From Desulfosudaceae bacterium (GTDB lineage: Bacteria; Desulfobacterota; Desulfobacteria; Desulfobacterales; Desulfosudaceae), in assembly GCA_963674745.2 (NCBI GenBank), contig CAXXDV010000001.1:128001-192000 (forward strand): DNA of 64,000 nt, read 5' to 3'. This document shows, piece by piece, positions 13,033 through 49,008 of the stretch. Positions within the stretch are counted from its first letter, which is position 1. Every line of letters starts with the position of its first letter. The notes under the pieces are model-generated. The model saw nothing but the letters and a program-made list of their open reading frames with translations. It had not been told where the DNA came from and did not search any database. Both the position numbers and the translations under genes were made by a program.

Positions 13033-13432
13033 CGGTCGGAGTGACCCGTAAGCCGAATTCTGTTCTCCGTTCGGGTTGCCCCGGACAGAGCGGCGATCAT
13101 TCATCTGGGGCCGCCGGTCACCCGGCGCCTCATGCGACCTACCCGGAAGCTCGGGCGGGGCCACCCTCAAACGCCTCCCTATTTGGCCTTGCACCGGATG
13201 GGGTTTACCAAGCATTCCCGGTCACCCGGGAATCTGGTGCGCTCTTACCGCACCTTTTCACCCTTACCCGGAACCTGCAGCCCTAAAGGCCGCCGGGACC
13301 GGGCGGTATATTTTCTGTGGCACTTTCCTTCACGTCACCGTGACTTCACGTTATGAAGCATCCCGCCCTGTGGTGTTCGGACTTTCCTCCACAGCCAATA
13401 TGCTGCAGCGATCGCCTGGATCGCTCCGACCG
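13033..13432 (-). ncRNA. rnpB: RNase P RNA (type A)
   Basis: The minus strand carries GAGGAAAGTCCG, GGAAAGTGCCACAGAAA and ACAGAATTCGGCTTA; complementary ends CGGTCGGAG / CTCCGACCG form P1. Confidence 0.95.
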
Positions 13433-16008: not shown

Positions 16009-16082
16009 TGGGCCCACCTGGGATCGAACCAGGGACCTACCGGTTATGAGCCGGTGGCTCTGCCTAGCTGAGCTATGGGCCC
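16009..16082 (-). tRNA. tRNA with CAT anticodon, most likely tRNA-Ile2 (lysidine type); CCA not encoded
   Basis: GGGCCCATAGCTCAG...CCGGCT-CAT-AACCGG...GGTTCGATCCC...GGGCCCA; G1-C72 pair argues against an initiator; lies downstream of rpoD. Confidence 0.9.
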
Positions 16083-21779: not shown

Positions 21780-21855
21780 TGGTGGAGATGAGGGGGCTCG
21801 AACCCCTGACCTCGGCATTGCGAACGCCGCGCTCTCCCAGCTGAGCTACATCCCC
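21780..21855 (-). tRNA. tRNA-Ala (CGC)
   Basis: GGGGATGTAGCTCAGCTGGGAGAGC...TT-CGC-AA...GGTTCGAGCCCC...CTCCACCA; G3-U70 pair. Confidence 0.95.
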
Positions 21856-34047: not shown

Positions 34048-35883
34048 TCAAACCCCGAACCCCGAACCCCGAACCCCCAGCCTCTTAACCTGCTTTTCAT
34101 ACAACTCCGCATAATACCCCTTATTCCGCATCAGCACTTCATGCTCCCCCTGCTCCACAATGCGCCCCTCCCGTAATACCAAAATCCGGTCGGCCAGACG
34201 AACCGTGGAAAACCGGTGACTGATCAACAGGGCACTTTTATTCTCCAGAAGTTCCCGGAACCGGGTAAACACCTCGTATTCGGCCTTGGGGTCCAGGCTG
34301 CTGGTCGGCTCATCCAGCACGATCAGCCGGGCGTCCCGCAAAAAAGCCCGGGCCAGGGCGATCATCTGCCACTGGCCGATGCTCAGTTCCACCCCGTCCT
34401 TGAATATTTTGCCCAGAATGGTCTGGTATTCTTTCGGCAGGGCCGCAATTACCCGGTGGGCCCCGGCCCGTTCGGCTGCCCCTCGAACCGTCGCCATTTC
34501 GGCTTCCGGCAGATCAATGTTGCCGAACCGGATATTGTCGGCCGCAGACAGATTGTATTTGACAAAATCCTGAAAAATAACACTGATCTCTTGCCGAAGA
34601 TCGGCAATACCGTACCTGTCCAGGGGAATACCCTCCAGGGTAATCCGGCCCTGTGGGGGGTCATAAAGCCGGCACAAAAGTTTGGCAATGGTGGTTTTGC
34701 CGGATCCGTTTTCACCGACCAGGGCCACCACTTCCCCGGGTTTGATGCAAAAAGACGTGTCTTTGAGCACCATGGCCGGGGTGTTGGGATAGCCGAACCA
34801 GACATTTTCAAAGCAAAACCCGTCGCGCTCATTCCCGGGTATCGGCAGGGGTTTGTCCGGATCTTTAACAACCGGCTCAACATCCAGAAACTGAAACAGA
34901 TAGGCCAGAAACAGGTTGCACTCGTACAGATCCGCCATCCCGGCCAGCACATTTTTCAAGGCCCCCAGCCCCCGCTGAAAGGCCTGGTAAAACATGACCA
35001 TATCACCCGGCGTAATGGCGCCGGTCACCGCCCGCCAGGCCATGACCCCGAACATGCCGAACACGGCCGCGAAACTGCCCATCTGGGCCAGTAAATCCGC
35101 AATTGCCCGCCGCCGTGAAATGGACAGCTTTTCTTTCCGTAATGACCGCCGCACCCGGTTAAAGCGATGGCTGATCTCCGTTCCAATGCCGAACAGCCGC
35201 ACTTCCTTGGCATGGACGTTGCCGGTTAAAATCCAGTTATAATAAGCGGCCATGCGCTCATCCGGGGTTTTTTGGGCCTGCCAGTTGAACATGACCCGGG
35301 AAAACTTGATCCGGACCAGGATACCCGGCACCGCCGCCAGCACCAGGATGACGGCCACGGCCCAGTGAAATGTCAACAGCAAGCCGGCCATGGCCAGCAA
35401 AGAGATACTGCTCTGCCCCAGTTGAATGAGGGTATTGACGATCTGTGTCGGCCGGAACGGCCCCTCCCGCTGGGCCCGGTGCAGGGTGTCAAAATACTGG
35501 GGGTTTTCATAAAAATCCAGATCCGCCTCAATGGATTTGGCATGCAGCACATCATACATCCGGTCCCCCACCTTGAGGCTCAAGGCCTCGCGCATCAATC
35601 CGGATATGGACTGCAAACCCGCTTGCCCCAGGGCCAGTCCCCCGGCACCGACCACCAGCATCATCACCCGCCCAAAAGCCGCCTGCGGATCCGGTGACCC
35701 CATGGCCCCAATCACCGTATCCACGATCAGCTTCATCAAATACAACGATGCCAGGGGCAAAATCCCCTGCAGGGCCATGATCACGGCCGACCCGACCACC
35801 CGGCCCGGAGCGGCCCGCCACACAAACCCCACCGCCCGGTCCAACCGCACGGCATGACGTATTTTTTGACGCAACGGTTTCAT
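34048..35883 (-). CDS. ABC exporter, fused permease/ATPase
   Basis: TM domain, GENGSGKTT, LSIGQWQ signature, LDEPTS, ISHR. Confidence 0.93.
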   Translation of the reverse strand: MKPLRQKIRHAVRLDRAVGFVWRAAPGRVVGSAVIMALQGILPLASLYLMKLIVDTVIGAMGSPDPQAAFGRVMMLVVGAGGLALGQAGLQSISGLMREALSLKVGDRMYDVLHAKSIEADLDFYENPQYFDTLHRAQREGPFRPTQIVNTLIQLGQSSISLLAMAGLLLTFHWAVAVILVLAAVPGILVRIKFSRVMFNWQAQKTPDERMAAYYNWILTGNVHAKEVRLFGIGTEISHRFNRVRRSLRKEKLSISRRRAIADLLAQMGSFAAVFGMFGVMAWRAVTGAITPGDMVMFYQAFQRGLGALKNVLAGMADLYECNLFLAYLFQFLDVEPVVKDPDKPLPIPGNERDGFCFENVWFGYPNTPAMVLKDTSFCIKPGEVVALVGENGSGKTTIAKLLCRLYDPPQGRITLEGIPLDRYGIADLRQEISVIFQDFVKYNLSAADNIRFGNIDLPEAEMATVRGAAERAGAHRVIAALPKEYQTILGKIFKDGVELSIGQWQMIALARAFLRDARLIVLDEPTSSLDPKAEYEVFTRFRELLENKSALLISHRFSTVRLADRILVLREGRIVEQGEHEVLMRNKGYYAELYEKQVKRLGVRGSGFGV

Positions 35884-35923
35884 TTTTTATTCATTAAATT
35901 TTATTCGGACGGTTATGAAGGTT

Positions 35924-36068
35924 TTAAGTGGTTATGTGGTTATGTGGTTATGTGGTTAGGTGGTTAGGTGGTTAGGTGGTTATGTGGTTATGTGGTTAGG
36001 TGGTTAAGTGATTAAGTGGTTAGGTGGTTAGGTGGTTATGTGGTTAGGTGGTTAAGTGATTAAGTGGT
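35924..36068. repeat. Imperfect 8-mer tandem array TTA(A/T/G)GTG(G/A), about 18 units
   Basis: Read directly; an inverted-orientation array lies at 36501-36593 and many shorter ones occur across the window. Confidence 0.9.
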
Positions 36069-36660
36069 CGGGTTCCTGCCTCGTCATTCCGGGCAGTGGA
36101 GCGAAGCGGAACGTGACCCGGAATCTAGAAAAGGATTTAGGTTTTAGCGTTTTAAGGTTTAACCGTCCGTCCGTACTATGTGTCTCGGGTGTAGGGGCGA
36201 CCGGCTGGTCGCCCTTCCATAATGATATTCGACAGAACTGGATTCCGGATCTTGCCCCGCCTTCGGCGGGTCTTGTCCGGAATGACGATGCCAAGGATTG
36301 CGACACACTCTCTTGACCCGGAATCCAGATCGACCATGGCAACCCCGGGCTGAACAAAAACAAAACAGAACAACACACCGACACCCCAATCCGTGTAATC
36401 CGTGTCAAAAAAAAGCGGAACACCTCGCACAGGCCACCCCCACCGCTCAAACCCCGCCACCGCCACCGCAATGCGGCCCCGCCACACCTCAAACCCTGCC
36501 CACATAACCACTTAAACACATAACCACTTAAACACATAATCACATAACCACTTAACCACTTAATCACTTAATCACTTAACCACATAACCACCTAAAACTT
36601 ATTGAAGTAAAACAGGACAAACAGGGCATGATATGCCCAGAATGGATTACGACGATACGA

Positions 36661-37248
36661 CTATACTTTTTCGACCGGCCCGATGACCAAATCCCACGGC
36701 TTTCGGCACTCAAAAGCACCCGTGTCCGGCCGGAAGCGGGCCACAACCCGTTTATTGCAGATATATTGAATATGTGTCCCTTTAGCGGAGTTGATCATGA
36801 GCCGGGTGATGCGGGGCCGCCAGAACCAACTGACGATTCCGGATGTCCTGAGTCTGTCATAAAGGGGAAAAATGATTCGAACCCCTTGCCGGCGTACTTT
36901 CCAGTAGCAATGAAGCCCCCAGCCACGGCAACGTCCAAGCCATCCGCCATGAACAATTAAAATACGGCCATTGCGTTCTTTATAACATACCCGGCCCACA
37001 AAATTACTTTCAGTCACCACCCCTTTGTCCTCGTGCGCTAAAGCATCCCCACGAGTTACCAGCCCCCCGCTGATGCGTCGCACCACCCGGTGGACGATCT
37101 CATCTTGCTCTTCCCCGCGCTGCCTGAAAAACACCACCACATCCCCGGGCCTTACCCGCGACAGCGACACAGGCTCAACCGTCAACACATCCCCCGGTTG
37201 AAAGGCGCCTTTCATGCTTAAGCCAAGATATACTCGTTGTGTATGCAT
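36661..37248 (-). CDS. S24/S26 (signal-peptidase-I-like) peptidase
   Basis: GLSM..AFQPGD (catalytic Ser), GDVVVF, IVHRVV, TRGD; start set at MHTQR just after the precursor stop. Confidence 0.8.
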   Translation of the reverse strand: MHTQRVYLGLSMKGAFQPGDVLTVEPVSLSRVRPGDVVVFFRQRGEEQDEIVHRVVRRISGGLVTRGDALAHEDKGVVTESNFVGRVCYKERNGRILIVHGGWLGRCRGWGLHCYWKVRRQGVRIIFPLYDRLRTSGIVSWFWRPRITRLMINSAKGTHIQYICNKRVVARFRPDTGAFECRKPWDLVIGPVEKV

Positions 37249-37261
37249 TCTCAGACCTGCG

Positions 37262-37528
37262 CTACCAGCCGGGCGAATCGCCCGTGTGACAACTCTCACC
37301 CGCAGTCCCACCATGCGTATAACAATTTGAAGTTGCTACATTGCCAGTTGGGCAATATGGTGTGTATGCAGGATCATTGCCCCATCCGCAGGTCAAACCA
37401 GCATTCGATCCACCTCTACATTGATCTCCTGCACTGGTTCCATCGCTACACGATTCCCCCAAGACTGAAGCGATTTTCCCCACAGCCATGCTCTTCGGTT
37501 TTTCATATTTAATTTTTTTGTTTGGCAT
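37262..37528 (-). CDS. Putative RiPP precursor, Cys/Gly-rich with a YEKP leader
   Basis: 88 aa; KYEKPK leader; six Cys in CxxGxx(A/P)-type repeats; co-oriented within the rSAM/PqqD operon. Confidence 0.8.
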   Translation of the reverse strand: MPNKKIKYEKPKSMAVGKIASVLGESCSDGTSAGDQCRGGSNAGLTCGWGNDPAYTPYCPTGNVATSNCYTHGGTAGESCHTGDSPGW

Positions 37529-37545
37529 AACGCACCCCTGTCAGG

Positions 37546-38115
37546 TTAATTGTCAGAAATTTTAATTATAGTTTCATCTAATCTTTTTTGCAACAAAGAG
37601 ACAACCGACTGCTTTTCAAGCGAGAATTGCAACTGCCATCCCGGATATTGCCTGGCCATCAAAACCGCGAACTGAAACCATCTTTGTGCCAGATCCGGGC
37701 GGGTCTTTTTTCGCTGGATATCAATCTCAAAAACCGCGTCCATAAGATATTCACAGGTTTTAATCGAAGACAGTGGCTTTAGGTCAGTATGTTGAGCTGC
37801 GAAAATACGAACAATGGCATGCAGCGGATACCACCTATCCTCTTCCTGCAATATCTCCTTATACGTACTGTCGTTTTCATATACCATAGATTTAATTTGG
37901 CGGCCGCTCATTACCCCCCAAATCCCGTTGTTCAATGATCTGGCAAACACCAGATCATCCGCGATCAAATAAAAATGGTCAGAAAGCAATGAGCTTAGCG
38001 TCGTTTTGCCGGAGCAGGAATGCCCCATCAACAAAATAGCGCCATAGGGGCCATCAACAGCCGCCGCATGCAAAAACAGACCGAATTTGCTATGAGAGAC
38101 AATTGGTTCCGGCAT
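37546..38115 (-). CDS. HPr-kinase-like P-loop protein (ScmC-like)
   Basis: LFLHAAAV, GHSCSGKTT Walker A, IADD; GAGG RBS before ATG 38115. Confidence 0.7.
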   Translation of the reverse strand: MPEPIVSHSKFGLFLHAAAVDGPYGAILLMGHSCSGKTTLSSLLSDHFYLIADDLVFARSLNNGIWGVMSGRQIKSMVYENDSTYKEILQEEDRWYPLHAIVRIFAAQHTDLKPLSSIKTCEYLMDAVFEIDIQRKKTRPDLAQRWFQFAVLMARQYPGWQLQFSLEKQSVVSLLQKRLDETIIKISDN

Positions 38116-39304
38116 GTTTAACCTCATCGCCTGGTTCATTTGGTGTGTGGCTGTTTTCGATATATGTACGACGGCGTGAATCCGGAAACAACCCGCGTGC
38201 TGCCGCTTCCTGGCACATGGGATCGGGCGATATTAATTTCCCATTTACCACATAATTCTGGGCCACACAATGCATCAGGCATCTGGAAGAGTGAATACAG
38301 TCACCGCAGATACCGGGGTATTGACCGGCAAGGCCGCTTCGCAATTCGTTCAGCAGTGGATGATGGATCCAGACATCTTTTAAATCATCCGTACCCAGAC
38401 TGCCGAAACAAAGCTCCGGAATGGTGCGCCCAATACCGCACAGCGCCATTTCTCCACTCCCCAGGATCCCCAGAACATTTAACACATTACAGGTTCCACA
38501 CGATTTCCCGACGCGGAGGATCTCGGATATGGCGAGCAGGGCCGGAGGCATCATGATGGTCAATGGGATGGAAACGCGCTGCTGAAGCTCCTGATTTATA
38601 TAATGCACCAGTTTGAGCGTCTCATCAAACACGAGGGTATCCCCTTTTTTGTGCAGCCCATCCCCCCGGCCGACACTATTGACCGGGTTGAATTTAACGG
38701 ACCCGACCCCAAGATCAACCGCTAATTGAACCAGGTCGTCTATTTCATGAAGATTGCCACGATGCGGACACATGATGATCTGCGGCCGGAACCCGGCTGC
38801 AACCAGATTTTTAACCCCCTGAACCGCCTTATCAAAAGCGCCTTCAACGCCCCGGAACCAATCGTGATAAGACGGTCTTGGGCTGTCAATGCTGACCGAT
38901 ATGTGCCACAGGCTTGTATTTTCTTTTAAATGAACTGCCAGATCTTTGTCGATCAGCGTACCATTGGTTTCCATGGTCAACGGGATTTTCTGTTCCGTAA
39001 AAAAATCGACGATTTCGACAAACTGGGGGTGTAAAACCGGCTCCCCGCCGGTCAGCTTGGCATTTGTCAATCCGAGGGGCCTGGCAGCTGCCACGGCATT
39101 CTTAAGCTGTTCCAGATCGATATATTCACCCGGTGTCGGCTTGCCATCCACATATGTCGGCGCGATCCAGCAATGTCGGCAGCGCAGGTTGCACCCATTG
39201 GTCAGGTAGAGATAAAAAGAATGTAAAGGGGGTACCCCCTCCGGAAGGTCCAATTGTTCTTGTATAGATTCGGCTTGTTCGGGCGGTTGCATATCACAGC
39301 TCAT
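38090..39304 (-). CDS. Radical SAM/SPASM peptide maturase (ScmF-like)
   Basis: CNLRCRHC, TGGEP, ETNG; SPASM Cys C...C...CxxCx5CxxxC...C. Confidence 0.9.
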   Translation of the reverse strand: MSCDMQPPEQAESIQEQLDLPEGVPPLHSFYLYLTNGCNLRCRHCWIAPTYVDGKPTPGEYIDLEQLKNAVAAARPLGLTNAKLTGGEPVLHPQFVEIVDFFTEQKIPLTMETNGTLIDKDLAVHLKENTSLWHISVSIDSPRPSYHDWFRGVEGAFDKAVQGVKNLVAAGFRPQIIMCPHRGNLHEIDDLVQLAVDLGVGSVKFNPVNSVGRGDGLHKKGDTLVFDETLKLVHYINQELQQRVSIPLTIMMPPALLAISEILRVGKSCGTCNVLNVLGILGSGEMALCGIGRTIPELCFGSLGTDDLKDVWIHHPLLNELRSGLAGQYPGICGDCIHSSRCLMHCVAQNYVVNGKLISPDPMCQEAAARGLFPDSRRRTYIENSHTPNEPGDEVKHAGTNCLS

Positions 39305-39903
39305 TCGATGACCTCTCCGATAAAACCGGCTGATTTGAGTTGTTCAATGAAGGCCTCCACATCATTCACAACCTGGTCCTCAGGCACGTCTTCACAGACA
39401 TCCAGCAGATACTCGACAATCTCCTGTTTTGTCCGTGGGTATTCCAGAGACTCCCAAATAGCCAGTCCTGTGGGATTGATGGCCTGAACCGCGTCGGTTT
39501 CCGGGTTGAACAAAATCGCGCCTTCAGGCTCTTCAACACGACAGGAGATGTCGCGATTCATGCTGTATTTTGTATTTTCCATATTTTTAAAATCCTTAAT
39601 GCCTGAAAGTCGGCCCACCTCTTTTATAACAGACTGATTATTCAAATCAATTAAAATGGCCATAACGTCCTGTGCCAACAAATCAGTGGATGTTTCATAG
39701 GTGACATTCAAGACATTAACGATATCATCTACCGTTTGTTTACCATCCAGAAGATTGAGGACATCCCGCGCAACCGCGTTGATTTTCACCAGCCGGCGTT
39801 CCTCGGGCAAAAAAATCAAGGATTCGTCACCAAAATCTTCAATGGCCACATTCTGCCGGACAACATAACGATTATTTAACTCCTGGTCATCGTATTCAAC
39901 CAT
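39301..39903 (-). CDS. Tandem PqqD/RRE-domain protein (ScmD-like)
   Basis: Two repeats of the pattern LF.P.....IN..(A/G)......L......I...L......DV; start approximate. Confidence 0.85.
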   Translation of the reverse strand: MVEYDDQELNNRYVVRQNVAIEDFGDESLIFLPEERRLVKINAVARDVLNLLDGKQTVDDIVNVLNVTYETSTDLLAQDVMAILIDLNNQSVIKEVGRLSGIKDFKNMENTKYSMNRDISCRVEEPEGAILFNPETDAVQAINPTGLAIWESLEYPRTKQEIVEYLLDVCEDVPEDQVVNDVEAFIEQLKSAGFIGEVIE

Positions 39904-39907
39904 TGTT

Positions 39908-40021
39908 GGTCTCGCAAAAATAGTCATTCCGAGCAAGTCCTGCCGAAGGCGGGCCCGCTGGATCCCGGCTCACATTTCGCTTCGCTCCATTGGCCGGGAT
40001 GACGAGTTGTGAGACAGTCTC
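39908..40021. repeat. Short MITE/REP-like palindromic insert
   Basis: GTCTCGCAA...TTGTGAGAC ends enclosing GTCATTCCG...CGGGATGAC and a CCTGCCGAAGGCGGG hairpin. Confidence 0.55.
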
Positions 40022-40061
40022 CAAGCCCGGAATTACGATGGCAACACTTTTTATAAAGCCA

Positions 40062-41504
40062 TCAGCCATGGGACAATTCATCAATAAACGGTTTATCAAA
40101 AGCCATTACCTGATTTTTGAATCGCCGATAACAGTCATGGGGATTGGCCCGGTTAATCTCCCCGGTCATTTCATGGGCCAGGCCCGGGCAACTGCCGTTA
40201 CAATACGGCGCCCATTCACAATCTTCGCAACCCGGCACCTGGGTCATGAGGATTTTTCGCCGGTCTTTGAGGGCCTGTAAGGATGAGTGATGCTTCCAGA
40301 TATCGGTTAATCGGCCCTGGTTAACCTGACCCAGCACCACTTTGGCCAGCATGTTACATGGCGTGATAACCCCGTCCGGGTGGACAGAAAGTTTGTTGTA
40401 CATACAGCCACAGGCCGTCAGATAGCCCATTTTCCATCGAGCAGTCATTTCCCCGGTGGCTTTGGCGTGCTCCATTTCCCGGTATGAATACCACTTGGCC
40501 AGGGGACCGGCCGTAGCGGTAACCCGGCCGTTGTATTGTTTTTCCAGCCGGGCCAGGGATTTCATGGCTAGTACCTGCTGCTGCGGTGTCAGTGTAATGG
40601 TTTTTTGATTATTACACCCGGAACCCATGGGCATGGCATCATTGGTTCCGAAACTGTTTATGCCCACATCCTTCAGCAGCAGCCGGGCGATATTATCAAG
40701 GTCGTCTACATTGTGGCGATTGACCGTTACCCGGACGGTTACCGGAAAACCGGTTTCTTTGAGCAGACGCAAAGCCCGGTACGCTTTCTCAAAACTCCCT
40801 TTACCACGGCTTTTGTCATGGACCTCGGCGCAGGAACCGTCAATAGACACCTGGATGCTGTTTAGCCGTTGGCGTCGGTTGTGTTTTTCAAATTCGGACA
40901 AAACCGTTTCCGTAATCAGTGTGCCGTTGCTTAGGATGCTGTAACGCATGCGGCTGTCAATAAGCGCGTCAATCAACGCCCATAAATCCGGCCGGACAAA
41001 GACCTCTCCTCCGCTCAGGGTGGCGCTCCGGACTCCGAATCGTTTTAACTCATCAAAAAAGGTCAGCCATTCCGGAAGCGGCAGGTCCGGACGAGAAGCC
41101 ATTTCATCCGCGTAAAAGCAGTAGGCGCAATGAAGGTTGCATTTTCCGGTCAGGGACAGATCAAAATCTCGAGGGGCATCGGCAATATTTGAATACGCTT
41201 CTGTCGGCATCGGTTTTTCGACCGGGGTTTCCGAGGCAACAGCAAACCCTTCGTTCAGTAATTCACCCGAAAATTCGGTGACGTCGGACAGAATTTCATC
41301 GTTGACGGAGATGTCGCAACGGGCGGCAAGGGTTTGGGCAAGGGCATCGGTGTGCGCCGTGCCGTCCATGGCCTGCCATACGATCAGGCCGGTGAGGTTG
41401 ATGACTTTTTCCCGGCCGGTGTCCGGGTCAAACAAGATGGCATTGTCCCCTTCAAGGCAGACGGAGATTTGGGGTTGGCGGGACCAGTATATTTTATTTT
41501 TCAT
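40062..41504 (-). CDS. Radical SAM/SPASM peptide maturase with an N-terminal PqqD/RRE domain (ScmE-like)
   Basis: N-terminal AILFDPDTG..INLTGLIVW; CNLHCAYC, SGGE; SPASM CGC...PC...CEDC..YCNGSC...DC. Confidence 0.9.
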   Translation of the reverse strand: MKNKIYWSRQPQISVCLEGDNAILFDPDTGREKVINLTGLIVWQAMDGTAHTDALAQTLAARCDISVNDEILSDVTEFSGELLNEGFAVASETPVEKPMPTEAYSNIADAPRDFDLSLTGKCNLHCAYCFYADEMASRPDLPLPEWLTFFDELKRFGVRSATLSGGEVFVRPDLWALIDALIDSRMRYSILSNGTLITETVLSEFEKHNRRQRLNSIQVSIDGSCAEVHDKSRGKGSFEKAYRALRLLKETGFPVTVRVTVNRHNVDDLDNIARLLLKDVGINSFGTNDAMPMGSGCNNQKTITLTPQQQVLAMKSLARLEKQYNGRVTATAGPLAKWYSYREMEHAKATGEMTARWKMGYLTACGCMYNKLSVHPDGVITPCNMLAKVVLGQVNQGRLTDIWKHHSSLQALKDRRKILMTQVPGCEDCEWAPYCNGSCPGLAHEMTGEINRANPHDCYRRFKNQVMAFDKPFIDELSHG

Positions 41505-42100
41505 TTTTATTTATTTTTAATGTATGAGTCCATTTTTATTCTGGATTCCGGGTCAAGCCCGGAATGACGAAGCGAAAGACCCGTCATTACGAAACGAAAG
41601 GCATTCGGCATGCCGCCGGCGAAAGGCCCGTCATGACCAAGCGCAAGTCCGTCGTCATTCCGCCAACGCAAGGCCTTCATTACTCGTCATTCCGGACAAG
41701 CGCAACGAAGCGGAGGCCGTCATTACTCGTCATTCCGGACAAGCGCAACGAAGCGGAGGCCGTCATTACTCGTCATTCCGGACAGCGCAGCGCAGCGGAG
41801 CGTGATCCGGAATCCAGTTCTGACGAGCATTATTATACGACTTTACGTTTATTAGCAATACAGCCGGTTGTTTCTGTCTTTCCATTCCCTTTTCTTGTAC
41901 GGCCTTGGTTTGCCATGGCCGATCTGGATTCCGGGTCAAGCCCGGAATGACGAAGCGAAAGGCCCGTCATTACCAAACGAAAGGCATTCGTCATTCCGCC
42001 AACGCAAGGCCGTCATTACTCGTCATTCCGGACAGCGCAGCGCAGCGGAGCGTGATCCGGAATCCAGTTCTGACGAGCATCTTAGCACGACTGAACATAT

Positions 42101-42406
42101 TCACCCGGACTGTTTAATCGAATCATACAAATCTTTCCAGTGCGGGTTTGTTTTTTCAATAAGTTCAATCTTCCACTGACGCTTCCAGTTTTTTAGCTGC
42201 TTTTCCCGGGTAATGGCGGATTCCATCGTGGCATGCAGTTCATACCAGACCAGTCGATGCACATGATATTGTTCGGTAAACCCTTTTATCTGATTGTTCT
42301 TGTGTTGCCATATGCGTTTGACGATATTTGATGTCACGCCGACATAAATCGTGCCATTTTGCCTGCTGGCCAGAATATACACGGCCGGTTGTTTCTGTCT
42401 TTCCAT
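42101..42406 (-). CDS. Stand-alone GIY-YIG endonuclease (copy 1)
   Basis: AVYIL...TIYVGVT, KRIWQH, AITREKQLK. Confidence 0.9.
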   Translation of the reverse strand: MERQKQPAVYILASRQNGTIYVGVTSNIVKRIWQHKNNQIKGFTEQYHVHRLVWYELHATMESAITREKQLKNWKRQWKIELIEKTNPHWKDLYDSIKQSG

Positions 42407-43007
42407 TCCCTTTTCTTGTACAGCCTTGGTCTGACTCCTGCCGATCTGGATTCCGGGTCAAGCCCGGAATGACGAAAGCGAAAGGCCCGTCATTACGAAA
42501 CGAAAGGCATTCGTCATTCCGCCAACGCAAGGCCGTCATTACTCGTCATTCCGGACAGCGCAGCGCAGCGGAGCGTGATCCGGAATCCAGTTCTGACGAG
42601 CATTATTATACGACTTTACGTTTATTAGCAATACAGCCGGTTGTTTCTGGCTTTTCATTCCCTTTTCTTGTACAGCCTTGGTCTGACTCCTGCCGATCTG
42701 GATTCCGGGTCAAGCCCGGAATGACGAAAGCGAAAGGCCCGTCATTACGAAACGAAAGGCATTCGGCATGCCGCCGGCGAAAGGCCGTCATGACCAAGCG
42801 CAAGTCCGTCGTCATTCCGCCAACGCAAGGCCGTCATTACTCGTCATTCCGGACAAGCGCAACGAAGCGGAGGCCGTCATTACTCGTCATTCCGGACAAG
42901 CGCAACGAAGCGGAAGCCGTCTTTCCTCGTCATTCCGGACAGCGCAGCGCAGCGGAGCGTGATCCGGAATCCAGTTCTGACGAGCATCTTAGCACGACTG
43001 AACATAT

Positions 43008-43313
43008 TCACCCGGACTGTTTAATCGAATCATACAAATCTTTCCAGTGCGGGTTTGTTTTTTCAATAAGTTCAATCTTCCACTGACGCTTCCAGTTTTT
43101 TAACTGCTTTTCCCGGGTAATGGCGGATTCCATCGTGGCATGCAGTTCATACCAGACCAGTCGATGCACATGATATTGTTCGGTAAACCCTTTTATCTGA
43201 TTGTTCTTGTGTTGCCATATGCGTTTGACGATATTTGATGTCACGCCGACATAAATCGTGCCATTTTGCCTGCTGGTCAGAATATACACGGCCGGTTGTT
43301 TCTGTCTTTCCAT
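43008..43313 (-). CDS. Stand-alone GIY-YIG endonuclease (copy 2)
   Basis: Protein identical to copy 1 except A13T. Confidence 0.9.
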   Translation of the reverse strand: MERQKQPAVYILTSRQNGTIYVGVTSNIVKRIWQHKNNQIKGFTEQYHVHRLVWYELHATMESAITREKQLKNWKRQWKIELIEKTNPHWKDLYDSIKQSG

Positions 43314-43611
43314 TCCCTTTTCTTGTACAGCCTTGGTCTGACTCCTGCCGATCTGGATTCCGGGTCAAGCCCGGAATGACGAAGCGAAAGGCCCGTCATT
43401 ACGAAACGAAAGGCATTCGGCATGCCGCCGGCGAAAGGCCGTCATTCCTCGTCATTCCGGACAAGCGCAGCGCAGCGGAGGCCGTCATTACTCGTCATTC
43501 CGGACAGCGCAGCGCAGCGGAGGCCGTCATTACTCGTCATTCCGGACAGCGCAGCGCAGCGGAGCGTGATCCGGAATCCAGGCCAAGCGAACCCCGGAAT
43601 GACGACACCAA

Positions 43612-44811
43612 TTAATGCCTAAATGTCTTTACCAGTTCAACCAATAACCCAAAGGGACGAAAAAGAAAATAAAACCCGGAAAACCGTGAATCCCTGGAAT
43701 GCTTTTCCCAATCTTTCTGGGTGGGGATAAAAATCCGGCGCAGAAGATAATGAAACTTGTCTCCGGGATGTTCCCGGATTTTCAAATAATAAGGAAGCTC
43801 AGCAATACGACCTTCGATCCCTTTTGTCTGATGGTTGCCATCAAATAAATCCGTATATATTCTTTGAACAATTTTTCTAATAGTTTTGTCTTTTTTAATA
43901 TTATCAACGATTTCCACCGGCAATGTGATGCCAAACACATCCCGGGCCAGAAAAAGGCCCAGCAGCAACCGTCTCCGGCAATGAAGCAATCCGGCCAGCT
44001 TGAGCGTCAATTGCCAGTCAAGCGCCGGATGTTGGCCTATCCATTCGGCAACACATAGGACCTTCTCCAGATGATTCCAGATATCATGGGCACCGTTAAG
44101 GCACAGACACAACAGCATATCTTCCGCTGACAGGCTGAGTATATCCCGGCCATCAAAACTAATTTTTTGCAGCCGTTCTTTGCAGAATTCATAATCAAAA
44201 GCCTGCCGATAAGGCACGCTGACCTGCCAGTGCAGATCGATTTGCAGCTCTTCAGCTGCATCTAAAAAATGGCACTCTCTGGCGTATTTCAGAACCTGCA
44301 CAAAACGTTTGCCGGACAGCCATTTTACAGAAGGAAACAACCGGGATTCCAGAAGCGCGTCCCGGGCCGAAACAACCTGATCTTCCGGCACCAGTACATC
44401 CACATCCTGATAATACCTGAGGGCGCTGTCACCATACAGGCATTGTGACAACAAGGGCCCTTTGTAAAGAACAGCCGGGATACCACGCTGCTCAAACCGA
44501 GCCAGGACAGCCATCAGCTTTTTGCATATCCTGAGGTTGTAGGCGACTATATTTAAATACTGACGGGAAAAGTTACTTTGCACGGCCTCCGGCAACACCG
44601 GCAGCAATCCTGCCTTCTTGATATTGGCATACAAAACCGGCAGAACACGGTGATTTTCTGCCAGCCGCAAAATCCGCTCCCAGTCAACCCCTCCGATTTC
44701 AACCAGCTCGCCTGCCCGCCTGATCCTTTCCGGCGTCAAATCCGCCCGGATCAGGACCAGAAGCAACTCAAAATCAGCCGATTGTTTCTTACTGACAAAT
44801 TCGCTATACAC
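43612..44811 (-). CDS. Nucleotidyltransferase family protein (NTP_transf_5-like)
   Basis: VDW..ILRLA..HRV, YKG, R...DVDVLV, IDLHW. Confidence 0.8.
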   Translation of the reverse strand: MYSEFVSKKQSADFELLLVLIRADLTPERIRRAGELVEIGGVDWERILRLAENHRVLPVLYANIKKAGLLPVLPEAVQSNFSRQYLNIVAYNLRICKKLMAVLARFEQRGIPAVLYKGPLLSQCLYGDSALRYYQDVDVLVPEDQVVSARDALLESRLFPSVKWLSGKRFVQVLKYARECHFLDAAEELQIDLHWQVSVPYRQAFDYEFCKERLQKISFDGRDILSLSAEDMLLCLCLNGAHDIWNHLEKVLCVAEWIGQHPALDWQLTLKLAGLLHCRRRLLLGLFLARDVFGITLPVEIVDNIKKDKTIRKIVQRIYTDLFDGNHQTKGIEGRIAELPYYLKIREHPGDKFHYLLRRIFIPTQKDWEKHSRDSRFSGFYFLFRPFGLLVELVKTFRH

Positions 44812-47209: not shown

Positions 47210-48076
47210 TTACAAAAATTTCATATTGTTCAAAACATGGCGGAAGTACTCCCTGGACCAGACATCCAGATCTACTGGCCGGGGGACAAAGGGCAGAATA
47301 TCGGCCTTGGCTGCTTCAAAATCCACTGCGTCAATCCGTTGCCCAATCATATCCAGACAACGGGATTTATCCAAAGGCCCCTCCTCCTTATAAACGCCTT
47401 TTTGCCGCAGCCGTTCTTCCAGATGAGATAGCAGCAAGGGAATATTTTTCCGCACCAGGAACGCAAAATCAAACCAGTCCCGGCCTTTCACCCGGTTTTG
47501 CCATCCACGAGACAAAACCGCGTCCATTTTTCCCGCAAAAAGCGCCGGACCGGAATACGCCCGCAAGGAAAACGGAACCGGCTCGTCAATGTAAGCCACC
47601 TCGAAGTCTGCGCCAGATGGCGGGTCAATATCCACTTCCAGCTTTACTTTACAAACCGCATCCCGATGAATCCTGCCGGCAACAGCCTCCGGCACTTTGG
47701 CCTTCATCATATGAATCCGTGTGTTTGCCTTGATAAATGCCGACGCAATCGGCGAATCTTGCTTTTTCCGATGCGCCTGAATATCCACCGTAAAGCCAAA
47801 GGCGCTCATCTCGTCTTTTAATGACGCGAAAAAAGCGGCCAGGCTAAAATCCCCATCAGGTGCCATCAAGGAAAAATCAAGGTCCTCGGAAAATCGGTCC
47901 AGGTGATACAATAGTCGCAGAGCTGTTCCCCCGTAAAACGCGGCATAAGAAAAAAATCCACCGCGCGACAACCCCAGCAAAGCAATCGATTGAACTGTTT
48001 CTGCAAGTGCCCGGTCCACTGCCCCATTATATTTCTCAAGATACGACTCTAATAATTGAACACTTGCCTCACGCAT
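47210..48076 (-). CDS. AbiEii/AbiGii nucleotidyltransferase toxin (type IV TA)
   Basis: FYGGTALR, RFSEDLDF, K..A...R, KGRDWFD. Confidence 0.9.
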   Translation of the reverse strand: MREASVQLLESYLEKYNGAVDRALAETVQSIALLGLSRGGFFSYAAFYGGTALRLLYHLDRFSEDLDFSLMAPDGDFSLAAFFASLKDEMSAFGFTVDIQAHRKKQDSPIASAFIKANTRIHMMKAKVPEAVAGRIHRDAVCKVKLEVDIDPPSGADFEVAYIDEPVPFSLRAYSGPALFAGKMDAVLSRGWQNRVKGRDWFDFAFLVRKNIPLLLSHLEERLRQKGVYKEEGPLDKSRCLDMIGQRIDAVDFEAAKADILPFVPRPVDLDVWSREYFRHVLNNMKFL

Positions 48077-48079
48077 TGC

Positions 48080-48709
48080 TTAGCCAGCCTGTTTCCCGAC
48101 AAATTTCATCAACATCCCCAGCGTCACTGTCCGGTAGTGCTCCGCCAATTGCATTAAATCCCCATAATCCAAACCACTGAATCCTTCCGGGTCTACCCGT
48201 AAATCGCCAAAAAGCAGTTGCTCCAGCCGCTCCAGAGACCGGACCCCCGAAATTCGATACAGCGTGTCACAAAGCGCCTTTTCCGCCGTAGCCATAAGAA
48301 AACGATGCCGCCCTTCTCCTGCCAACATGACACCATGCGAATACGCCCTGGACGGGACATCCTGATACAAAAAAGAGCCCACCGGTGTATCATATCGCTT
48401 GGATCGGCCCTTTTCATAAGTGGCCGAAGTAATGTGAGACACATGCTCCGGAATCAACCCGTGCCACCGCAGGGCATACACAAAAGACACATAAGACGGG
48501 CCATAAATCCGGTTGGCGGCCTGGCCCAGAACATAGGGATTATGCACGGCCTCCGCTTTAACATACAATCCCCTCTTAAGACGATGCAAAATGCCCTGTC
48601 GCACCAGGTATGCGATCTTTGATTTGGGATTGGCGTAATGCGAAAAATGATCCTGCAGCCATAAAGCATCCGGCAAATCCACCGGTATTTCCGAAGTATA
48701 CTTTTGCAT
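48080..48709 (-). CDS. AbiEi-type antitoxin / transcriptional regulator
   Basis: RLKRGLY, PSYVS..AL..HGLIPE, ATAEKALCD; GGAGGAG RBS before ATG 48709. Confidence 0.88.
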   Translation of the reverse strand: MQKYTSEIPVDLPDALWLQDHFSHYANPKSKIAYLVRQGILHRLKRGLYVKAEAVHNPYVLGQAANRIYGPSYVSFVYALRWHGLIPEHVSHITSATYEKGRSKRYDTPVGSFLYQDVPSRAYSHGVMLAGEGRHRFLMATAEKALCDTLYRISGVRSLERLEQLLFGDLRVDPEGFSGLDYGDLMQLAEHYRTVTLGMLMKFVGKQAG

Positions 48710-48721
48710 AACTCCTCCAAC

Positions 48722-48742
48722 AAGTATAAATACGATATACTT
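48722..48742. promoter_or_regulatory. Candidate AbiEi operator (inverted repeat)
   Basis: AAGTATA-N7-TATACTT just upstream of the RBS. Confidence 0.45.
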
Positions 48743-49008
48743 ACTGGCGCAAATATGCAACAAAAAAATCAAGCCGAACCGCATTCGCCAACCGCCCCAA
48801 CAAAGCTTCCTTCGTAATGCCGGGCCCTCTCTCCTCGTAATGCCGGACCCCTCTCCTCGTCATGCCGGACCCCGATCCGGCATCCATCCCTTTCGTCATG
48901 CCGGACCCCTCTCCTCGTCATGCCGGACCCCGATCCGGCATCCACAAGCGCCAAAACCTTCCCCTTAACCACATAATCACTTAACCACTTAATCACATAA
49001 TCACTTAA

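Follow-up and report, generated by a model that had tools for sequence, protein, structure and literature searches.

A probable ScmA-type cysteine-repeat precursor in a SynChlorMet-like gene cassette of a Desulfosudaceae bacterium

A small open reading frame (ORF) in a 64,000-nucleotide (nt) stretch of DNA from a Desulfosudaceae bacterium (GenBank assembly GCA_963674745.2, contig CAXXDV010000001.1, positions 128,001 to 192,000; hereafter the window, whose own coordinates are used below) very likely encodes the ribosomal, ScmA-type precursor of a SynChlorMet-like cassette for a peptide made by the ribosome and modified after translation (a RiPP), an assessment that covers the precursor and its assignment to the cassette only. 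Judged by gene order and by occurrence across genomes, the precursor is coupled both physically and phyletically to a pair of radical S-adenosylmethionine (rSAM)/SPASM enzymes, RiPP recognition elements (RREs), an HprK-like protein, an S26/SpI-like peptidase, a PF14907 protein and an MsbA-like exporter. The preliminary description of this region, made from the letters alone, had proposed a RiPP precursor with a YxxP leader beside PqqD-type RREs and two rSAM/SPASM enzymes, and this much stands, while the peptidase, the HprK-like protein, the PF14907 protein and the exporter had been overlooked, as had the existing NCBIfam entries for cassettes of this kind, which include a narrow precursor model.

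The precursor gene and its family

The strand of the ORF, on which the preliminary description was silent, is the minus strand: translation of positions 37262-37528 on the plus strand gives many stops, whereas the minus strand reproduces exactly the peptide given there, with Cys at residues 27, 37, 47, 59, 69 and 80 and spacings of 10, 10, 12, 10 and 11. These Cys open six units (CSDGTSA, CRGGSNA, CGWGNDP, CPTGNVA, CYTHGGTA and CHTGDSP) that follow the YxxP leader (Table 1). A Shine-Dalgarno-like AGGGG lies 8 nt 5' of the ATG, and the gap from the preceding (ScmC-like) gene is 17 nt. Within the 3' end of that gene, about 35 nt 5' of the precursor ATG, there is a promoter-like TTGCAA-17-TATAAT site (37565..37593, minus strand), which may act as an internal promoter of the precursor gene and is a weak consensus match only; the promoter and terminator scans as a whole return consensus-level matches only, with 19 promoter sites compared to 11.7 ± 3.1 in shuffled sequence.

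In shuffles of the precursor core, all five Cys spacings fell within 10-12 in 2 of 100,000 cases, so the periodicity is not a product of chance; the pattern is also kept in the relatives. A word-indexed search with the single peptide as query gave one relative, of 77 residues and 61% identity, which lacks exactly one repeat. A genome search with the neighbouring ScmF-like protein led to five loci (L001-L005), in two Desulfobacterales metagenome-assembled genomes (MAGs) and in MAGs of Clostridia, Aminicenantes and Victivallales, and each of the five has, right after the ScmF/ScmC genes, a short ORF whose product shows the same leader along with five to seven Cys. The check put forward in the preliminary description, a look for short ORFs near homologous rSAM pairs, thus found a homologous ORF at all five of these loci. 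A seven-peptide profile run against 1.84 billion representatives (clusters at 50% identity) matched, at E ≤ 1e-3, 143 representative clusters, all of 55-193 residues, of which 40 reached E ≤ 1e-10. Public records, where they name family members at all, say "hypothetical protein", and the ESM Atlas matches of the precursor are unnamed "hypothetical protein" clusters only (best score 0.92). Pfam holds no family for the precursor or for 50 relatives, no Pfam or NCBIfam model matches the precursor at E ≤ 0.01, and an Rfam search of the cluster gave no match.

A Cys period of 10-11 residues and a C-x-x-G-x-x-A/P unit are family-wide. Among the 145 family sequences, Y..P lies inside the first 60 residues of 137, the number of Cys per sequence is 3-9 (mode 5-6), and the Cys-Cys spacing is 10 or 11 in 466 of 651 cases and 9-12 in 591 of them. 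Unit and register statistics were anchored on the 141 sequences having both YxxP and a core. Gly stands at +3/+4 of 728 of 738 Cys (98.6%, compared to a shuffle mean of 34%), the pattern C-x(2,3)-G-x-x-[AP] is fitted by 570 of the 738 units (6% in shuffles), and Ala precedes the following Cys by four positions (-4) in 54% of cases. The modal leader reads KK[ILV]K-Y-E-K-P-x-[AS]-[VLI]-D-L-G-x-V-A-P-[VI]-L-G-A-x-C, with a distance from Tyr to the first Cys of exactly 19 in 97 of 141 sequences, Gly at Y+9 in 95% and Gly at Y+16 in 96%. Close homologues differ in length by exactly one 10-11-residue unit, which bears out the earlier view of the repeats as units.

A codon comparison of the window gene with that of L002 gives a nonsynonymous divergence (dN) of 0.36 and a synonymous divergence (dS) of 2.19, with dN/dS of approximately 0.17, and the comparison with L001 over 78 codons gives 28 synonymous-only and 20 amino-acid-changing differences, with dS saturated. 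By these measures the precursor gene is judged to be under purifying selection, and the sequence comparisons taken together indicate that the ORF is a real, conserved, translated small gene. If it were instead a chance ORF, or the shadow of the 91-residue plus-strand ORF that overlaps it at 37237-37512, the overlap itself and the lack of a Pfam or NCBIfam match would be as expected. In different phyla, however, the minus-frame peptide is kept at an equivalent position of the cassette, its dN/dS is well below 1, and the profile recovers 143 related clusters. Conservation across phyla, profile relatives and codon comparison effectively refute this explanation, to which we assign almost no probability.

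It is also necessary to consider whether the peptide, instead of serving as a substrate of enzymes, could be a small structured Cys-rich protein, either a disulfide-stabilised solenoid or something akin to metallothionein; this would include the metal-binding alternative raised in the preliminary description. Regular 10-11-residue repeats that are rich in G/A/S/T/N and carry one Cys each do resemble solenoid repeats. AlphaFold2, given the precursor alone with a 50-row alignment, predicts no fold, with a predicted local distance difference test (pLDDT) score of 56, a predicted template modelling (pTM) score of 0.20, a core below 50 and no secondary structure, and the precursor has neither a signal peptide nor a hydrophobic segment (maximum KD19 0.46). 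A protein of this kind would furthermore give no reason for the conserved N-terminal YxxP stretch or for having RRE, peptidase and rSAM genes as neighbours. We consider it very improbable and find no support for metal binding, which nothing favours. The lack of a predicted fold and of a hydrophobic segment is as expected for a RiPP substrate.

The cassette and its occurrence across genomes

NCBIfam catalogues a "SynChlorMet cassette" made up of ScmA (TIGR04252, 49 positions), ScmC (TIGR04249), ScmD (TIGR04248), ScmE (TIGR04250) and ScmF (TIGR04251). In the window, genes for two rSAM/SPASM enzymes, a PqqD protein, an HprK-like protein and the precursor are contiguous on the minus strand at 37262-41504, and the same order is found in L001-L005. 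The two rSAMs and three RREs named in the preliminary description proved real, the former as two Radical_SAM+SPASM proteins and the latter as PqqD domains occurring once in the ScmE-like and twice in the ScmD-like protein. In the PDB a 14-member ScmC profile matches HPr kinase best (E 1.6e-6), the match being confined to the P-loop region. The S26 ORF extends to 37314, and its start is probably the ATG at 37248, 14 nt past the precursor stop; the peptidase motifs GxSM, VHRV and TRGD (Ser/His/Asp) are kept in nine of nine orthologues, and there is no transmembrane segment. The PF14907 gene lies upstream of the cassette, past a repeat-rich spacer of 2 kb.

Table 1. Features of the precursor and of the cassette genes, in window coordinates (aa, amino acids; ABC, ATP-binding cassette).
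Feature	Position	Strand	Characteristics	Model match
Precursor gene, ScmA-type, Cys-repeat	37262..37528	minus	88 aa + stop	TIGR04252 9.7 bits (cut-off 35)
Leader of precursor	37451..37528	minus	residues 1-26 (MPNKKIKYEKPKSMAVGKIASVLGES); contains KYEKP; invariant Y8/P11 (YxxP), G17, G24	
Core of precursor	37265..37450	minus	residues 27-88; six C-x-x(-x)-G-x-x-A/P units, period 10-12; C-terminal SPGW	
ScmC-like HprK-type P-loop protein	37546..38139	minus	197 aa, short form; GHSCSGKTT and ADD motifs	TIGR04249 16.6 bits (cut-off 125), E 3.7e-3
ScmF-like radical SAM/SPASM enzyme	38090..39304	minus	404 aa	TIGR04251 367.4 bits (cut-off 400)
ScmD-like protein	39301..39936	minus	211 aa; two PqqD/RRE domains	TIGR04248 71.1 bits (cut-off 100); PqqD E 6e-27
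ScmE-like radical SAM/SPASM enzyme	40062..41504	minus	480 aa; PqqD/RRE at residues 23-87	TIGR04250 387.2 bits (cut-off 400)
S26/SpI-like (archaeal-type signal peptidase I-like) protein	36661..37248	minus	soluble; candidate leader peptidase	TIGR02228 48.6 bits (cut-off 51.85), E 7.9e-13
MsbA-like ABC exporter	34048..35883	minus	611 aa	MsbA is best ABC match
PF14907 "uncharacterised nucleotidyltransferase"	43612..44811	minus	399 aa; Pfam family of LppN	E 1.4e-49

To describe the occurrence of the precursor we used a 50-row family profile, made up of 49 diverse members chosen from the 145 sequences and the paralogue from the window's own genome, on 401 sampled genomes of the phylum. At E ≤ 1e-5 the precursor is found in 23 of these, and TIGR04251 at E ≤ 1e-60 is found in 38, of which 14 score above its cut-off. 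An ScmF-type rSAM is present in 21 of the 23 peptide-positive genomes vs. 17 of the 378 peptide-negative ones, figures that are counts only, kin being non-independent. The two peptide-positive genomes without ScmF, G033 and G217, are 85% and 88% complete.

Neighbourhoods of up to 20 kb were taken around 20 of the 30 precursor places, leaving out the two places in the window's own genome, four second hits on the same contigs and the places in G033, G074, G091 and G384. Both rSAM types lie beside the peptide in 12 of the 20 regions, an ScmC-like gene in 14 (15 with L058, judged by eye), PqqD in 13, S26 in 11 and PF14907 in 10, and where contigs allow the two rSAMs are always paired (12 of 12 cases). 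Of the regions lacking an rSAM, four are contigs of 2.3-20.7 kb whose ends come close to the peptide, with ScmC and in some cases S26 on them, three hold orphan precursors (L063, L067 and L068), and one has PqqD and PF14907 only. ScmF is found elsewhere in all three orphan-bearing genomes. At several loci there are two or three tandem precursors.

Outside the window, the same genome carries a second ScmA-type precursor of 94 residues with six Cys (L008 13120-13404, in the segment L008 11526-13962, G000:C1 approximately 283.5-286 kb). Its neighbours are a PqqD gene and a gene for a 554-residue fusion of ScmC (HprK-like) and S26, the ScmC domain of which scores 144.9 bits, with no rSAM within approximately 10 kb. 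A related cassette encodes a 515-residue fusion of an N-terminal S26 peptidase and a PF14907 nucleotidyltransferase (L060 8196-9743), and these two fusions are the reason for regarding the accessory genes as tied together. The MAG contig of L002 also holds, at L002 6101-9218, a second and different cassette with its own PqqD, ScmF-like, ScmC-like and S26 genes, whose precursor of 75 residues has a WxxP-like leader (MKTLKWEKP...) and C-x-x-GGSA repeats.

The loci without an rSAM bear on a reading in which the product is a linear tailored peptide similar to the linear polyphosphorylated peptides (LPPs) of Bacillota, RiPPs studied experimentally by Popov et al. (Nat Commun 2026, PMC13381572). The RRE, the HprK-like kinase and the SpI peptidase, with or without PF14907, would then be essential; the Cys would stay as free thiols or disulfides or would bind metal, with the rSAMs either dispensable or working on some other substrate. 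The own-genome L008 precursor with its PqqD gene and ScmC+S26 fusion, the three orphans, and the functioning of the LPP pathway without any rSAM (PMC13381572) are all consistent with this. Against it, the four genomes of L008 and the orphans all carry ScmF elsewhere, so that modification in trans is possible, ScmF accompanies the peptide in nearly every peptide-positive genome (21 of 23), the rSAM pair adjoins the precursor in 12 of 20 regions and at all five close loci, and ScmE has an RRE of its own. We regard this reading as improbable and retain that of an ScmA-type precursor served by the rSAM pair.

The cassette is surrounded by polysaccharide genes, namely Wzy_C+TPR, Wzz/GNVR/P-loop, Poly_export/SLBB, an EpsL-like DUF11/BBP2_2 outer-membrane protein and Bac_transf. 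The interval from the ABC exporter gene to the S26 gene holds, at 35892-36611, two arrays of 8-nt tandem repeats, with GGTTAKGT occurring approximately 20 times at 35916-36075 and its reverse complement approximately 14 times at 36485-36603; the arrays form inverted arms of 114 nt (82% complementary) around approximately 450 nt. A repeat mosaic at 41535-43565 separates the ScmE-like and PF14907 genes and includes 43-nt tandem units as well as a 300-nt sequence present twice at 99% identity (42009-42308 and 42916-43215), each copy coding for a 101-residue GIY-YIG protein (PF01541, E approximately 1e-17). The mosaic resembles a small family of mobile or selfish elements. At 47210-48784 a gene for an AbiEii-family nucleotidyltransferase toxin (PF08843, E 1.9e-29) adjoins a 234-residue ORF with no Pfam match, and these two neighbours of the polysaccharide locus may make up a type IV toxin-antitoxin pair. 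The window also contains the RNase P RNA class A gene (303 bits; 13034-13427) and two tRNA genes (16009-16082 and 21783-21855), all on the minus strand.

Proposed leader recognition and core modification

By analogy with the LPP system and with lasso peptides, the KYEKP (YxxP) leader would be bound by at least one of the three RRE domains, which would present the precursor to ScmE and ScmF for modification of its six C-x-x-G-x-x-A/P units. The HprK-like protein and the PF14907 transferase may then add phosphate or nucleotide-derived groups, and the soluble Ser/His/Asp SpI-like peptidase, assisted by an RRE, would cut the leader near the conserved V-L-G-(A), at a distance of two to three residues from the first Cys on its N-terminal side; in the leader of the window precursor we infer a cleavage point near VLG/ES. 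The ABC pump would export the product, possibly for a role tied to the surrounding exopolysaccharide locus.

The first of these steps has precedent, as YxxP is documented as an RRE-binding motif for lasso and LPP leaders (PMC13381572). The preliminary description had suggested structure prediction of leader-RRE complexes, and such a prediction for ScmD with residues 1-40 of the peptide gave scores of 0.53, 0.53 and 0.48, compared to 0.00 for the best control. This mark is reached by 116 of 157 solved complexes and by 2 of 215 mismatches, and with a score of 0.60 or below it is reached by only 18 of the 157 solved complexes and by both passing mismatches. The runs agree in at least 98% of contacts, the partner pLDDT is 54, and no interface is reported by which to tell the two ScmD domains apart. 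Since RRE-YxxP complexes have already been solved, the pass may reflect likeness to them, and the suggested prediction, which does separate the pair from its control, stays at a weak level of support. Binding of the leader by an RRE is suggested by the invariant Tyr and Pro, by the LPP and lasso precedent and, weakly as regards the complex, by this prediction.

With respect to the chemistry of the core, Cys-rich cores beside SPASM enzymes have mostly proved to be those of sacti- or ranthipeptides (SCIFF, freyrasin, NxxC). A single Cys-derived thioether of the sacti- or ranthi-type per unit is accordingly a tentative proposal by analogy, with a chance that we place somewhat short of even. After ScmE and ScmF, the NCBIfam families nearest to the window rSAMs are WgkB, NirJ1, AhbD, MftC, GeoRSP and PqqE, with StsB and AlbA no better and PapB weaker. 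The models of characterised thioether maturases score far below cut-off (PapB 56-80 of 340 bits, AlbA 76-84 of 850, StsB 81-112 of 625), and the best PDB matches are PqqE and SkfB (E 1e-15 to 1e-17).

The same precursor and cassette could be paired with rSAMs that install something other than thioethers, such as C-C or C-O cross-links, epimerisation of Ala or other residues, oxidation of Cys to formylglycine-like groups, or Cys heterocycles, and the two enzymes may carry out different reactions. Enzyme homology shows no preference for thioether formers, the conserved Gly (+3/+4, 98.6%) and Ala (-4, 54%) may themselves be targets, and the constant pairing of the rSAMs (12 of 12) fits two distinct reactions. 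On the other hand, Cys is the sole invariant residue of each unit, and the precedent for SPASM enzymes with Cys cores is mostly of the sacti- or ranthi-type. We consider non-thioether chemistry rather unlikely, though a possibility of some weight beside the thioether proposal.

Several results weigh against the preferred assignment of an ScmA-type precursor modified within a SynChlorMet-like cassette. A look-up of sequencing runs listed none of RNA for this organism. The five components corresponding to ScmA, C, D, E and F all score below the NCBIfam cut-offs (Table 1), and TIGR04252 matches the window precursor with an E of 0.95, aligning residues 8-44 to positions 1-39 of its 49. The ScmC proteins of the window clade are without the N-terminal half of canonical ScmC. 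Family precursors without rSAM neighbours occur at the own-genome L008 locus and at L063, L067 and L068. The core Ser3 that LppK polyphosphorylates in LPPs (PMC13381572) has as its equivalent Ser26 of the window precursor (Y+18), a position that is Ser in 33% and Thr in 12% of modal-register members, so an LPP-type kinase target is not conserved in the family. The predicted complex of ScmD and leader gives weak support only. Even the nearest of the rSAMs with a solved structure or known function are remote, and their chemistry is mixed (PqqE, which forms C-C bonds, SkfB, which forms thioethers, AhbD, NirJ, MftC, WgkB and StsB), and for this reason thioether chemistry is not indicated by enzyme homology. 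Two further arguments were tried and given up. SPASM Cys ligands counted by eye seemed full in both enzymes, with no hint of an auxiliary cluster ligated by a substrate Cys, which would also speak against the assignment; the count is unreliable without structures and was set aside. The cleavage and Ser3 register of LPPs, laid on the window leader, fits at Ser26, and was dropped as an argument with this position being unconserved in the family.

Comparison with known systems

The system of the window is, from its sequence relationships, a divergent relative of the catalogued and chemically uncharacterised SynChlorMet cassette, and is thus not categorically new. The best NCBIfam match of each window component is the corresponding Scm model, with the ScmE-like and ScmF-like scores the best by far and just below the 400-bit cut-offs, and both systems combine two rSAM/SPASM enzymes, PqqD and HprK-like proteins and a small precursor with YxxP and Cys repeats. 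The window system differs in that its ScmE carries a fused N-terminal RRE, its ScmD is a double PqqD protein where the TIGR04248 profile has 84 positions, and its ScmC is a short form compared to a 292-position profile. Canonical cassettes in which ScmF and ScmC score above cut-off (L050 and L066) also have S26, PF14907 and ABC genes and the same precursor type, and the near-cut-off ScmA matches L009 and L010 likewise show a YxxP leader and 10-11-residue Cys repeats. TIGR04252 itself is above cut-off in none of the 401 genomes, and its low-scoring matches are partly noise (a control also matched in Caulobacter); at E ≤ 1 it finds 10 of the 50 family members (best 9.8e-4). So narrow is this model that it misses even the precursors of canonical cassettes, which have the same build and are recovered by the new family profile. 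A literature search on the SynChlorMet cassette, which did not extend to subscription-only papers, found no paper. The family is sizeable, with 143 clusters at 50% identity and 23 of 401 genomes of one phylum, and its defined repeat unit is available for mutagenesis.

The maturases of sacti- and ranthipeptides (SCIFF/CteB, freyrasin/PapB, NxxC, subtilosin/AlbA) are rSAM/SPASM enzymes with an RRE that act on Cys-bearing cores, and in freyrasin and NxxC peptides each repeated short Cys motif gives one small thioether ring. The window system is similar in placing an rSAM/SPASM enzyme with an RRE beside a Cys-bearing core, and is different in its 10-11-residue C-x-x-G-x-x-A unit, its two maturases and its module of kinase, transferase and SpI peptidase.

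Paeninodin-type lasso peptides have a [Y/W]xxP leader, to which a discrete PqqD-type RRE binds, and tailoring genes for an HprK-like kinase and an NTP-transferase (PMC13381572), and the window system resembles them in these respects. In contrast, the window core has no lasso-type features, and neither a lasso cyclase (Asn-synthetase-like) nor a B2 transglutaminase-type/cysteine protease was found among the 14 ORFs scanned at 30-47 kb.

The accessory module of the window cassette corresponds, at the level of sequence, to the LPP machinery. LPP clusters lie within capsule loci, and their products are LppS (S29/H68/D93), a signal peptidase of the SpI-like archaeal type; LppB, a stand-alone RRE; LppK, a kinase similar to HprK; LppN, an NTP-transferase, which is PF14907; and an MsbA-like pump (PMC13381572). 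The YxxP leader, of consensus YxxPxVLxHQxIxFETxxS, is bound by LppB, and cleavage by LppS requires LppB (PMC13381572). The window presents the full accessory set, with an SpI-like peptidase bearing Ser/His/Asp motifs, a stand-alone RRE, an HprK-like protein, PF14907 and an MsbA-like exporter, and the two systems also agree in their YxxP leader, in the number of precursor genes (one to three in a cluster) and in lying within a polysaccharide locus. They differ in that the window operon adds two rSAM/SPASM enzymes and a Cys-repeat core, in that the family leader departs from the LPP consensus beyond YxxP, and in the host, which is Desulfobacterales-like and not a member of Bacillota. The article calls LPPs Bacillota-restricted, and in it "Radical SAM" occurs zero times in the main text and only as one column heading of the supplementary domain matrix (PMC13381572).

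It is conceivable, at odds of roughly one in three in our estimation, that ScmA-type peptides form an unrecognised, multi-phylum RiPP class in which an LPP-type chassis is joined by two rSAM/SPASM enzymes that form one small ring per unit. If so, the product would be a ladder of five to seven rings, phosphorylated or nucleotidylated, with a role in exopolysaccharide or biofilm loci, and precursors elsewhere in a genome, such as that of the second own-genome locus, would be served in trans. The precursor profile, the repeat unit and the link to LPPs make the system directly testable by heterologous expression, and we regard it as a good lead for RiPP discovery. The comparison connects a cassette defined only in silico to machinery characterised in 2026, predicts which proteins bind and remove its leader, and extends LPP-type machinery past Bacillota.

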